NCBI GenBank assembly: GCA_017499595.2
Contig: CM039003.1
Span: 1,054,001 to 1,118,000 of the forward strand
Source of the DNA: Psilocybe cubensis
Lineage: Eukaryota
DNA: 64,000 nt
Direction: 5' to 3'
Positions 10,735 through 15,265 of the stretch are shown one piece after another. The notes under the pieces are model-generated. The model saw nothing but the letters and a program-made list of their open reading frames with translations, was not told the DNA's origin and did not search any database. The stretch's first letter is position 1. Each line of letters begins with the position of its first letter. Both the position numbers and the translations under genes were made by a program.

Positions 10735-12581
10735 ATGGGTATCAATAAGTTATGGAAGGTACGTTACAGCATACTGTTGTGTGATACTGATCTAATCTTT
10801 GAATTGACCGCCAATTTAGATGCTTGAGCCCATTGCACAGAAAAAATCACTGTTAGAAATGTCCGTACAAGAAGGTGTTGTAAGCAGACGGCATGGTACT
10901 GGAGTCTTAGTCATTGGCATTGATGCAAGGTGAGTGGATTAGACTTTTCTGGTGTTTTGTTGTGCTTATCATGTGCATAATAGTCCATGGTTTTACGCTA
11001 CACAGGCGATTTTTGCTGGGCATGCTCATGCTCAGGCAGGACAGAATCCCGAACTACGCACCCTTTTCTTCCGTTTGGCAATGCTTTCATGATGCGCTAT
11101 AAGCACTGTGTTTGTATTTGATGGCGCAAACTGTCCAAAAACCAAAAGGGGACGCCGTGTTCGAACAATGCCTCATTGGATGACCAAAGCATTCAAAGAG
11201 TTAGTTGACGGGTTTGGGTTTCACTACCATACGGTATGCTGTCACAATTTTTGATTTAGTGTACTTATATTGATATCTAATTTGCAGGCTCCAGGGGAGG
11301 CGGAGGCCGAGCTTGCGTATATGAATAGAATTCACGCTGTTGATGCTGTTCTTACAGTAGACAGTGATGCATTTCTTTTCGGTGCTCCACAAATTTTGCG
11401 CATGTTGGTTTTTTGTGTTTTATTAGTTTAAGCTATTTCTAACTCATATCTAGGAATGTAAAAAATGCGAAGGAAAAGGACGTTGTTGAGGTCTATACTG
11501 CAGATGCTTTAGCTGCGCAGCCTAACCCTAATGCATTTTTGCCGGCTGCACTTCTTTTTTTGGCGGTAGTTTGTGGCGGTGACTATGATACAGTACGTGA
11601 TTATTGTATGAAGTATAGATTCTCTTCCTAATCTGAAAATCTACATTATCTAGATTGGACTCAAGGGTTGTGGACCAATTACGGCTTCGGCACTTGCATC
11701 GGGCCCGCTAGCTCAGCAGTTATTCAATGCTGCCCATGAGTATGACGAAAACATGCTAAAAATATTTTTGAAAGAGTGGCGCATTTCTTTGTGCAATGAA
11801 CTTGAACATGATTATAGTGGGCACATTGGTAGGAAGCATCCAAAGGTTGCAGCTAATGTTTCCGATGCATTTCCGGACCCAAAAGTGCTCAAGCTGTATA
11901 GTCATCCTCTTACTTCGGAGTCACAACTGGGTAATTTGGTGCATAGTAACCAATGGTTTATTCCGGAGGTACCTGATAACTCAAAGCTGGCTGCTACTTG
12001 TGGTCGGTTATTTGGTTGGGGCCCGACAATTGCTTCTAGATTCGTGAGCAATATATGGGATGGATATTTCATTCGTAAATTTATACAGGTGTGATTGTCT
12101 GCTCATTTTTACTGTATTGTTTCGCTTACTTTACCCATTGTGAATATATTAGCTGTCGTCATTTTCTCCTATCGAGCATACTCAAAATGACGTGTCAGCT
12201 TTAAAATCTAACATTCGCTTTATGACACGTGCAAAATCATCCAGAACATTTGTTAACATTCAGTTGACAATGTGGATTGATGCCCTTGCTGCTGAGGCGG
12301 CAACTTCTGTTGTTAGGCATGCTGGCACACACCCCTCCTCAATCGAGGGTCTTTCAACAACTATTCAAATGTTGATATGGGTTCCCGAGCCAATTTTACA
12401 AGCATTTTCGAGTCAAAAAGTTGCAAAGTTCTATGCAGAGCATCCACGAGCTTCATTTGATGGTCAATTAGAACTCTATACACCTGTAAGTCAATTATGG
12501 AATATGTTTTCTATTAACCAATAATCAAAATTTTACTAGGTTCTTTTTAATGACCTTGAATTCGCCGCTCCTAGTGTTTAG
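10735..12581 (+). pseudogene. GEN1/Yen1-like XPG/Rad2-family (PIN fold) structure-specific nuclease with a premature stop
   Basis: Spliced exons: MGINKLWK, VIGIDAS, GQNPELRTLFFRL, FVFDG..PKTKRG, APGEAEAELAYMN, DAVLTVDSDAFLFGA, GGDYD-GLKGCGP (H3TH); in-frame TGA at 11090-11092. Confidence 0.85.
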
Positions 12582-12876
12582 CTCCTATCATTACGCTTTG
12601 GTCATAACTTGGTATTGCTTCCTAAATGTGTTTGTGTTATTTGTACTATTACGTAGTCTAATTCTAATATTTTGAGGTCTCTAGACTCTCGCTGAGGTCT
12701 AAAACTTTTATTGACGGCAATTAATCTCTGGGTCCGGTTTGTTAGTACATCTAGAATATAATAATAATGTCTCGGAACTAACTCCTAAGTGTCGGCAGCT
12801 GGATTCTACTATCCGTTGCTCAATTCAATGATATATCTTTCTTGTGTCTCCAAATCCTAGCATCCAGATAGAACTC

Positions 12877-15265
12877 ATGCCAAAGACTACGCAAGCAGCA
12901 ACACACAAAAATCCATACCCAACGTATTTGCATGCTCGTAAAGCCGCTGAAAAAGGCGTCAAAAAACACAAAAAAGCCGAAACAACCGCTGAAAACTACC
13001 GTGGCCATATTTGCCGTGGAAGAGAGTTTTTTGAGAAGTTTGTTCTTGAAGAAAGTGAAGCCGAGGAACTATGGAATAGGCGTCCAGACTCAGAGGCAAA
13101 TATAGCAGTGGCAGGCGAGAATCAGCTTCAATTGAGTGGTTCTGATTCTGACAGATTTTGGATGCATCCCAAATTCCGTGAAGCATTTACCGGGCCACCA
13201 ATTGAATGCACTCTACTTGCAATTTCTATGTTCATGGCATTTAAATGTCATACCCTTAATCGAGAAAAGTCTACGGCATCTGCTATTCATGCAGCCTTTA
13301 TCCAACATTATGATCAGTTGTACGTGAAATTGGCTGTCATCTCACGGTAGATTGGATTCTAACTTTTGCTATTCACATGGATATAGGGACAGAGATAAGT
13401 TTCGAGGGAAGTGGCATTATGATAACCATCTAAAGGAGTGGGTCGGAAACCCTGTTCGGTCCGCAGAGGTTGAAGATCAGCTAGCGGCATGTAAAAATAA
13501 GGATGGTGAGGGTGAAAGAAAGCACTCACGCGCAATTACTATTCAAGATATGCGCTGTCTTCTTGACCATTCACTCCAAAAATGTCCAACCTTTGATCTT
13601 GAAAACGGTACACAGGCTTATCAGAAAAATATTCTGGCCGAGCGGGCGACTTACTTGCTATTCAATGCCTTATCAACATCTGCATTTACGATCTGGATGA
13701 GGTATTGGTAGCTCTGAATATATCTGGTGACAGCTGCTTACCTGATTTGTTAGAATTGGCGAGGTCACTTCACTTCAATACAAGAATCTTGAGTTTCCAG
13801 TAGGACGTCAGAAATCACACTTCCAAGGCCATCACTATTTCCGGCTCAACTTGCGCAATCGGAAAAACTGGCAAAAGCGGGAAAAAAATGGAGAACACCA
13901 GCTAAGCGGTCAGTTGATTACAATCTAATCTTTTATCGGAGTATCCAATGTCATACTGAATTTGTGAATTGCCAGGGCATACTTACATGGTATACAGCCA
14001 ACCACGGACACCCAAGATTGATATGCATAGGCACCTGCTAGATTGGTTGGAGTTTTACGAGACAGTTCTTCTTGGAAGGCCACTCCTACCCGATGACTTT
14101 TTGTTTCCTATGATTGGTATTAGCGGCACATCAGTCCAGCCAGATTGTGCCATGACATCCGATATCGCTCAAAAGAAGATAAATCAAATGGCAATGGATG
14201 CAAATATTCACGGTGCTCAGTATTTTACTACTCACTGCTTCCGACGGGGAGGTGCTCAGTATCGCTTCATGTTTGCTCCGCTTGGAGAGAGGTGGACGCT
14301 TGCTCGAATACGATGGTGGGGTGGGTGGGCAACTGGGGAACATGTAAGTTTGGAATTCTATATTCATTGGTAAGAGTCTAATCAAATGTTGCTGGATAAA
14401 GCGAGATACGTTAATTCGGTATCTACTGGATGAACTGTATACCTATGAGGAAGATCATAGCAATGCGCTTTGTCCAGCAGACGATTCCCCCAATCCGGAC
14501 TTAGCATTTTCGTCTCATGAGCAGAAACTCGTATTGAACGCAGCACCCACAACCAACATTGTTGCTGGATTCACGCGCCAAGTGACACAGCAAATTTCAA
14601 CCCTTTGTTATAGTCTCGAAGAATTGCGACGGCACTCTTCGGTAAGTCTGCAGTTTGATTTGCCAGCTCTTAATAATTAATAACAGCTTTACAATACAGC
14701 TTTCTGTGGGACCCACACTACGGACTGTAACGGACCTCGACAAATCCAAGTCACCAGTGCCGCGGCCACCGTTGGTTGAACATTCTCATCAATTCTCACC
14801 AACATTCTTACCCGGCGGGCCTCCACATCATTTTTCTAGCCAGTTCAGTCTCAAAAACACAGCAGCTACTAATAACATGGAGATCCGCCATCTTATCCCA
14901 GGTTTTCCTCGAAAGCTTGCATCCAAAGCATTTGAGCAAGTTGTAAAAGACTGGGAAATGGCTGATCCCAGCCGTTCTCTCTATGTTCCAATGAAGGATT
15001 GGGACCCTGAATGGCATAAACGCTCAGGCCAATCTCAAAAGTATGGACAGCGACAAACCGTTGCCCTTGAATTCATTGATTAGTGAGTTTGGTCAAATCT
15101 TACAGTATTATTTACTAACTACGAGTTAGTTTTAATCGTGACAAAGACGCGTTTAAGCGAGCGTATCCGGAGTATGTCAAAGGGTTCACTCCTCTTTTGC
15201 ATGCTATTCGGCAGGCACAGCAACTGAGAGGTGACAGTATACAGCGCCGTCGAAGAATAGATTAA
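12877..15265 (+). CDS. Tyrosine recombinase (Crypton-like) with a putative C-terminal DNA-binding domain
   Basis: Seven exons join in frame; catalytic set WM-R-IGE, NR-K-NWQ, H-CF-R-RGGAQY, RWWGG-W, TLIR-Y-LLDE; C-terminal VVKDWE..PMKDW..QKYGQRQ segment is reminiscent of GCR1_C. Confidence 0.88.

Follow-up and report, generated by a model that had tools for sequence, protein, structure and literature searches.

The window analysed here, a stretch of 64,000 nt from contig CM039003.1 of Psilocybe cubensis, contains at positions 9489 to 16001 a discrete mobile element that is polymorphic among strains of this mushroom. The element carries two co-oriented genes, an upstream gene for a nuclease of the GEN1 type and a downstream gene for a tyrosine recombinase (YR). 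With a probability of about three in four, we regard it as a copy of an undescribed Crypton-type lineage of Agaricomycetes that has a nuclease and a YR as its core and in which the nuclease most likely cuts the recombination junction. A preliminary description, made from the letters of the window alone, had proposed a basidiomycete family of YR elements with its own nuclease. This proposal is supported by an empty insertion site, by the recurrent pairing of the two genes and by a separate clade of element nucleases. Coordinates of the features are collected in Table 1.

Boundaries and ends of the element

Fourteen public runs were listed for positions 8000-17900 of the window, five of which contain 0.89-0.97 of the sampled words and four only 0.33-0.34. 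Over positions 5500-19500 we compared X6 and X8, which have the low share, X10, which is RNA-like, and X13, which consists of raw DNA reads. One contig in each of X6 (19,430 nt) and X8 (5,201 nt) passes directly from position 9488 to position 16002, skipping 6,513 bases, with a 5-nt overlap whose letters fit either side of the joint. The same joint is present in six raw X13 reads, and because X13 depth within the element is only about 0.4-0.7 of the flank depth, both forms, filled and empty, are present in this run. The left junction reads ...cttcatg TAAGT ctagtt... and the right junction ...tacgaca TAAGT aaagatg..., and the empty allele has one TAAGT; joint and junction sequences together place the element at 9489-16001. 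An empty site in related strains, which the preliminary description had suggested seeking, is thus present in X6, X8 and X13. As the insertion is polymorphic among strains, it is also recent.

Table 1. Coordinates of the element and its parts in the window, with cargo sequence of three related metagenome loci
Feature	Position	Strand	Remarks
Whole mobile element	9489..16001	+	6,513 bp, one TAAGT copy counted; placed by the empty-site joint
Left TAAGT of the 5-bp direct repeat (putative crossover core)	9489..9493	+	Empty allele has a single TAAGT, ...cttcatgTAAGTaaagatg...
Left terminal region	9494..9565	+	GAATTTAA at 9508-9515 (14 nt off the core), CTTAAATTC at 9524, AACGGCAGC at 9555
GEN1-type (Rad2/XPG family) nuclease gene	10735..12524	+	GT-AG spliced model, ~481 aa, disabled in this copy; 7 exons: 10735-10758, 10820-10929, 10984-11233, 11288-11403, 11454-11592, 11654-12088, 12153-12524
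In-frame stop TGA, nuclease codon 81	11090..11092	+	Context RLAMLS*CAIS; no GT...AG intron could remove the TGA
Crypton-like YR gene	12877..15265	+	679 aa, intact, unbroken frame, conserved helical C-terminal domain; 7 exons: 12877-13319, 13387-13701, 13754-13908, 13976-14343, 14402-14641, 14700-15082, 15130-15265
Non-coding stretch, right part of element	15357..15781	.	One identical 425-nt X10 contig, depth 59.9; no conserved open reading frame
Right terminal arm	15986..16001	+	CTTAAATTC, then 7 nt (TACGACA) abutting the core
Right copy of TAAGT	16002..16006	+	Other X6/X8 loci keep the right end until 16006/16007, then have differing flanks
Ribonucleotide-reductase small-chain cargo	L033:6112-7495; L028 ~1914-3512; L019:721-2251		Inside the element ends

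As in Cryptons, whose terminal repeats measure 4-6 bp, a short direct repeat (TAAGT) stands at both termini, and repeat searches of the ends found no terminal inverted repeats (TIRs), long terminal repeats or long direct repeats. No second copy was found within the 64-kb window, and Rfam and tRNA scans of 9000-16500 gave no match. All open reading frames (ORFs) of at least 110 aa inside the element are part of the nuclease or the YR gene, and tblastx against six related loci revealed no convincing conserved coding sequence beyond these two genes; neither approach gave an ORF for a reverse transcriptase or a DDE transposase.

To define the ends of related elements, copy boundaries were read from near-identical metagenome copies that diverge in their flanks. 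Loci L033 (4726-13922) and L028 (123-9461) are 87% alike inside these limits and unrelated outside them, and L027 has its right end in common with both and continues into a third, distinct flank. The right ends of all three read ...CCTTAAATTY-N7-TAAGT, and the left end of L033 reads TAAGT-N14-GAATTCAA, with CTTAAATTCT slightly further in. L001 and L032 likewise have the same end motif in different flanks, and L003 and L004 both start at TAAGT after different left flanks. The closest relative among the metagenome loci, L005, has candidate ends at 74 (left) and 7582 (right), which would delimit an element of 7.5 kb. The layout TAAGT-N14-GAATTYAA recurs in L033, L003, L004 and L001 and, more loosely, in L005, and the spacings in the window element (7 nt on the right, 14 nt on the left) equal those of its relatives. 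These comparisons indicate that the ends are conserved in the family, as TAAGT-N14-GAATTYAA on the left and CTTAAATTY-N7-TAAGT on the right.

The motifs are also specific in their placement. Within 9401-16100, CTTAAATTC occurs only at 9524 and 15986. The exact right motif has one match in the window and none in any of 100 shuffles, and it was found in 7 of 80 metagenome loci, always on the plus strand and 1.3-1.7 kb downstream of the YR. The stretch 9496-9565 also occurs in another genomic context in X6, X8 and X13.

We considered whether the locus might instead be immobile, a fixed pair of host genes in which the apparent empty site is a strain-specific deletion between chance TAAGT pentamers. 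Although TAAGT is common, with 47 copies on the plus strand of the window, the same terminal motifs and TAAGT bound related metagenome copies in unrelated flanks, and in X6 and X8 the right end also stands at other loci, beyond which at least three different flanks follow. The family is moreover multi-copy within species, and a threshold of E <= 1e-3 on the YR profile retrieves 2,690 representative clusters, of which 563 remain at E <= 1e-30. The related copies in unrelated flanks already contradict a fixed gene pair, and we attach almost no likelihood to it.

At the insertion point, catG|TAAGT resembles a 5' splice site (GTAAGT), and open frames reach the insertion (9305-9487) and resume beyond it (16219-16512). 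It is possible that a host gene is interrupted by the insertion; the flanking ORF pieces matched no Pfam family.

The recombinase and nuclease genes

As had been proposed from the letters of the window, the spliced YR holds every catalytic position in an unbroken frame: R (WMRIGE), K (RNRKNW), HCFR, W (RWWGGW) and Y (LIRYLLDEL). These positions fall on invariant or near-invariant columns among 40 relatives, and exon 4 is 100% identical to P0001, a P. cubensis UniRef entry named 'Tyr recombinase domain-containing protein'. The distance to the nuclease gene, earlier put at about 300 bp, is 352 nt (12525-12876), and both genes lie on the plus strand.

No Pfam family attains its cut-off on the YR. 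Below the cut-offs, 40 members of the YR family gave matches to DUF3435 (16/40, best E 2.8e-4), Phage_integrase (10/40), Phage_int_SAM_4 (6/40) and GCR1_C (2/40, best E 0.082), and a sequence-profile search of PDB chains returned no match at E <= 1. The AlphaFold 2 (AF2) model of a paralogue, P0002 (predicted local distance difference test score, pLDDT, 76.9), has Cre as its best structural match (E 1.2e-4, probability 1.0), over about 385 columns that include both domains. The C-terminal domain is conserved and confidently helical. In the nearest named Atlas cluster of the YR (score 0.97, 183 shared features), 77% of the members have NDC10_II and 56% have GCR1_C, which is the architecture given for CryptonF proteins and their yeast derivatives in PMC3212892. 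A comparison with Crypton and DUF3435 recombinases had been suggested earlier, and its outcome (the Cre fold, the NDC10_II/GCR1_C cluster and a DUF3435 score below cut-off) is that the YR is Crypton-like and not a Starship captain.

For the upstream gene, the motifs from which the preliminary description had recognized an XPG-family nuclease with GEN1/Yen1-like signatures are found in the spliced model (NPELRTLFFR, APGEAEAELA and GGDYDT-IGLKGCG), and exon 4 matches Pfam XPG_I at E 1.8e-15. The window nuclease has the full set of seven catalytic acidic residues (DDEEDDD), as do many relatives. The gene is nevertheless disabled in this copy, as had been noted, its sole defect being the single in-frame TGA listed in Table 1.

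The window nuclease aligns to YR-linked relatives over residues 9-455 with 28-41% identity, and to host GEN1 over residues 1-354 only, with 37-40% identity. Host GEN1 proteins are 800-1000 aa long, combine XPG_I with GEN1_C and are mostly one per species among the matches listed; the GEN-like protein of P. cubensis itself, P0231, is 33.5% identical to the window nuclease. A search with exon 6 returned eight proteins, all of them host-type GEN1, the element clade being missed by this word-based method. In a quick tree of 52 rows, the window copy groups with six YR-linked nucleases, P0194 and P0226 (SH-aLRT, the approximate likelihood-ratio support, 98). The tree and alignments indicate that the element nuclease is derived from GEN1 and is distinct from the single-copy host GEN1. 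The phylogeny that the preliminary description had called for therefore gives the linked nucleases a clade of their own, and the concern that the nuclease might simply be the host GEN1 did not materialize.

The same tree places P0231, named 'Flap endonuclease GEN-like protein 1', in a well-supported group with Galerina and Heliocybe proteins (P0235, P0232). This clade is separate from the main host GEN1 clade, in which Heliocybe also has a member (P0202), and it may represent a second host paralogue.

For structure comparison we used the AF2 model of a linked relative, P0227; host GEN1 is included in the alignment of that model. Its core has pLDDT mostly >85 and matches Chaetomium GEN1 with Z 32-33 over residues 2-463 and human GEN1 with Z 26.9 over residues 2-468, and the match to XPG and to most FEN1 rows ends near residue 360. 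In this predicted structure the GEN1-specific chromodomain seems to be retained. Pfam GEN1_C was detected in none of six fused nuclease and YR models.

Recurrence of the gene pair, other copies and cargo

The YR exon search gave 222 relatives, of which the best 120 were listed. Among the matches listed, every named YR relative comes from an Agaricomycete, often with several per species. Fused gene models that join nuclease and YR number 11 in other Agaricomycetes (7 among 242 proteins, including P0227, and 4 among a further 123 representatives). Among the 120 listed YR relatives, six carry Pfam XPG_I (6/6 tested), and in five the nuclease stands first. In P0117 of Steccherinum ochraceum (1158 aa), alone among the fused models, the YR precedes the nuclease, whose XPG_I match spans residues 888-979; a merge of two tandem elements could account for this order.

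Such models could mean that nuclease and YR are one polypeptide from a single gene, split by mutation in the window. In favour of this view, 11 database models of 834-1397 aa join the two parts. In the window, however, the nuclease frame stops and the YR has its own ATG 352 nt further on, and stand-alone YR models align at full length from residue 1-15. Most of the best 120 of 222 YR relatives are YR-only models of about 600-760 aa, and the estimated gap between the genes in metagenome loci varies from 267 to 1145 nt. Close co-oriented genes are often merged by automatic annotation, and fused models are a common product of it. A single fusion gene appears very unlikely.

Metagenome contigs scanned with a YR profile, which yielded 80 loci, offer a sample less biased than gene models. 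Among the 40 YR loci with at least 1 kb estimated upstream, 28 have a nuclease just upstream on the same strand, and wherever the context is visible the element nuclease is tied to a YR. The preliminary description had left it to further search whether adjacency and co-orientation recur elsewhere or the pairing occurs only here. With 28/40 metagenome loci, 11 fused models and copies in different flanks, the pairing clearly extends beyond the window.

The history of the pair was assessed on a YR tree of 65 rows, in which 30 are linked to a nuclease, 8 lack it and 27 are of unknown state. The linked state is found in both deep halves and absence requires five changes, in small patches, so that the two-gene state looks most simply ancestral, with sporadic loss. 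Across 16 loci the pairwise identities of nuclease and YR co-vary (Spearman 0.57; 0/500 permutations as high). In general, the gene content of these relatives indicates that the family has a core of two genes in the same orientation, with the GEN1-type nuclease lying upstream of a CryptonF-like YR.

Other copies exist in P. cubensis itself. Several further X6 and X8 contigs keep the right end to 16006/16007 and then enter at least three different flanks, which implies additional copies, and the paralogous YR P0002, 63% identical, is consistent with this. A 5,795-nt contig of X6, whose depth is roughly double that of the flanks, runs colinear with the element. It is about 94% identical over 9813-12515, the left region and nuclease; its YR part matches in short patches only, and the right terminus matches again. 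This mosaic pattern (compared with 9813-16006) suggests module exchange or gene conversion among family members.

The suggestion in the preliminary description that the family might carry gene cargo is borne out in one subfamily. In L033, L028 and L019, the interval from left end to nuclease contains ribonucleotide-reductase small-chain sequence (Pfam E 5.4e-56). The encoded protein looks partly decayed and disrupted in its middle, and the sequence may be a decaying captured copy. Other loci are reduced: the derivatives L003 and L004 lack the nuclease, and their YR follows the left end after only about 1.5 kb. In L001, a right-end-like arm, TAAGT and a left arm stand back to back at 1483, which fits a 1.45-kb miniature element (33-1487) and a full element (1483-8671) in tandem sharing one core. 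The full element of L001 is without nuclease and has a TBP-like piece at 2643-2960 and a Ras-like piece at 7266-7916 (minus strand).

These derivatives bear on a more conventional account, in which an ordinary Crypton has long carried along a captured GEN1 paralogue as a passenger that takes no part in the chemistry of transposition. In a variant of this account, the nuclease might serve the element or the host otherwise, through repair, maintenance of the circle or protection from host defence. Nuclease-less copies do exist, with L003 and L004 at different sites, and the window copy is recent despite its nonsense codon. The family also picks up host sequences, as with the ribonucleotide-reductase small chain, and the Cryptons of oomycetes carry a second protein, a C48 peptidase, for which PMC3212892 gives no known role. 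A passenger would nevertheless not be expected in both deep halves of the YR tree with order, orientation and spacing fixed, nor to co-diverge with the YR, keep its catalytic set in many copies and form one clade apart from the host gene. The presence of a resolvase beside an enzyme that makes Holliday junctions would also be an unlikely coincidence. For these reasons we consider a mere passenger improbable.

Transcript-like contigs of run X10 touch the element at two places, one of which is given in Table 1. Over 9716-9960, X10 contigs reach very high depth (~6,000 to 30,000, against ~10-110 for neighbouring genes), differ from the window at letters for which roughly half of the X13 DNA reads agree with them, and have an unrelated left continuation. 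These differences and the continuation point to a very highly expressed transcript from elsewhere that shares about 250 nt with the element; Rfam and tRNA scans gave no match for 9716-9960. The exons of the nuclease and YR genes are covered by no X10 contig, a result that carries no weight on expression.

The surroundings of the element are those of ordinary host DNA on the right, where genes on the minus strand (16822-19403 and 20338-25760) include Mis12 in two exons, a GH43 glycosidase and pieces of an aldo/keto reductase. Further on, a SAM-domain ORF lies in a GC-rich stretch (0.61-0.62) at 28000-30000. The element had been described as an AT-rich island unlike its neighbours. Its GC content of 0.428 is slightly below that of the right 5 kb (0.474), with 0.46 for the whole window, but equals that of the left 5 kb (0.430) for practical purposes, so that the description holds for the right side only.

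Proposed mechanism and relation to known elements

Given its ends and gene content, we propose that the YR would excise the element as a circle by recombining both TAAGT cores. The junction of the circle, CTTAAATTC-N7-TAAGT-N14-GAATTYAA, would carry imperfect inverted arms round the core, like a classical YR site, and the YR would then integrate the circle at a TAAGT-like target via a Holliday junction. The element's GEN1-type enzyme would most likely cut that junction, or else a flap or nick arising from incomplete second strand exchange. With such cutting, neither perfect homology of the cores nor the host resolvase would be needed for integration or excision. Because the window nuclease has a nonsense codon, movement of this copy would depend on nuclease supplied by the host or by a sister copy.

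A stricter version of this scheme, which we offer only tentatively and with less than even expectation, is a two-enzyme chemistry, so far not known from any transposon, in which the YR performs the first strand exchange only, at the 5-bp core, and the element's GEN1-type resolvase cuts the Holliday junction. If this were true, integration would be freed from core identity, which would explain the TATGT/TAAGT junctions of L028, and a compact basidiomycete family could take up host genes and carry them to new sites, like a miniature version of the ascomycete Starships.

Several observations weigh against a Crypton-type lineage that uses its nuclease in this way. At the ends, L028 has TATGT in place of the left TAAGT, and TAAGT could be a strongly preferred, duplicated target and not a crossover core. 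For the YR, GCR1_C and all other Pfam families score below their gathering thresholds. With regard to the nuclease, it is absent from 12 of the 40 metagenome loci whose upstream sequence is long enough (at least 1 kb), and catalytic residues are lost in several copies (L050, L047, L065 and L062). The linked clade in the quick nuclease tree consists of long branches, for which long-branch attraction is possible, and P0117 falls outside it on a very long branch. The chromodomain was seen in P0227, a relative, in a model whose alignment contained host GEN1 sequences. The nuclease-less L003 and L004 agree to about 92% in the main block of their alignment and have different left flanks, which means that they changed place, actively or passively, with no nuclease in cis; the window insertion, although polymorphic and hence recent, has a nuclease interrupted by a nonsense codon. 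Supply in trans, by sister copies or by host GEN1, would reconcile both of these last points with the proposed mechanism. Finally, the role of the nuclease in resolving the Holliday junction made by the YR is one that we infer.

Crypton DNA transposons were reportedly described by Goodwin et al. in 2003. The element resembles CryptonF, as presented by Kojima and Jurka (2011; PMC3212892), in having a YR as recombinase, genes with introns, no TIRs or long repeats, and terminal direct repeats of 4-6 bp that are taken as recombination substrates, and in the excision to a circle with subsequent integration that is proposed for both. The likeness extends to the C-terminal helical domain of the YR, whose nearest named relatives have NDC10_II and GCR1_C. 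The element differs in adding a conserved GEN1-type nuclease gene upstream, the word 'nuclease' being absent from the main text of PMC3212892, and in its core of 5 bp (TAAGT), where most fungal CryptonF have 6 bp according to the same text. Arm motifs that are conserved could be defined for the element, and GCR1_C is detected only weakly in its YRs (see above).

Two-protein Cryptons of oomycetes and diatoms (CryptonF-2_PS and CryptonS; PMC3212892) likewise combine a Crypton with an extra protein, and CryptonS has terminal direct repeats of 5-6 bp with a shared sequence (TATGG). Their extra protein is a C48/Ulp1 peptidase and their hosts belong to another group, whereas the element has a DNA-junction nuclease.

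Starships, which have a DUF3435 captain and are found in Pezizomycotina, are also YR-mobilized fungal DNA that can carry cargo, and 16 of 40 element YRs have weak DUF3435 matches below the cut-off. The element family measures 6.5-9.3 kb and not tens to hundreds of kb, its hosts are basidiomycetes, its YR is the second gene where the captain is the first, and a putative resolvase belongs to its core. We rejected membership among the Starships on the grounds that DUF3435 is under the gathering score in 40/40, the YR is the second gene and the element has 6,513 bp. Starship-like elements are stated to be uncharacterized in Basidiomycota in a 2026 preprint (10.64898/2025.12.30.697041).

Compared with host GEN1/Yen1, the element nuclease shares the identity over the nuclease core and the seven acidic residues described above, and the predicted fold of its relative P0227 seems to match through the chromodomain. 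Unlike host GEN1, the element nucleases form a separate, fast-evolving, multi-copy clade, are about 480 aa long and not 800-1000 aa, and show no Pfam GEN1_C in the fused models.

The AcademX transposons carry a nuclease of the XPG type. Like the element, they are a eukaryotic transposon lineage with a nuclease beside the transposase (PMC10045372), but they use a DDE transposase and have target-site duplications of 3-4 bp, where the element has a YR and a fixed 5-bp core. Membership in AcademX was rejected because no third conserved gene was found in the element and its junction repeat is a fixed 5-mer. In the open full-text literature, a Crypton or YR joined with XPG or GEN1 in a transposon was not found, though Repbase or supplements may hold basidiomycete Cryptons. 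The nearest precedents are the Cryptons with a C48 peptidase and AcademX with its DDE transposase and nuclease.

Little is understood of eukaryotic YR transposons, whose ends are notoriously difficult to locate. The family described here offers base-exact ends, a conserved att-like site, a strain-polymorphic insertion in a cultivable mushroom and hundreds to thousands of relatives. Its own putative resolvase makes it testable whether the second half of YR recombination can be handed to a structure-selective nuclease, and whether target requirements are thereby relaxed, and a compact pair of recombinase and resolvase with a short defined site is a possible tool for genome engineering. The family also bears on stray 'tyrosine recombinase' genes near Psilocybe gene clusters, a 'novel hypothetical tyrosine recombinase' being mentioned for one psilocybin cluster in PMC11812301. 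For the Basidiomycota more generally, it means that small cargo-carrying YR elements exist in this group.

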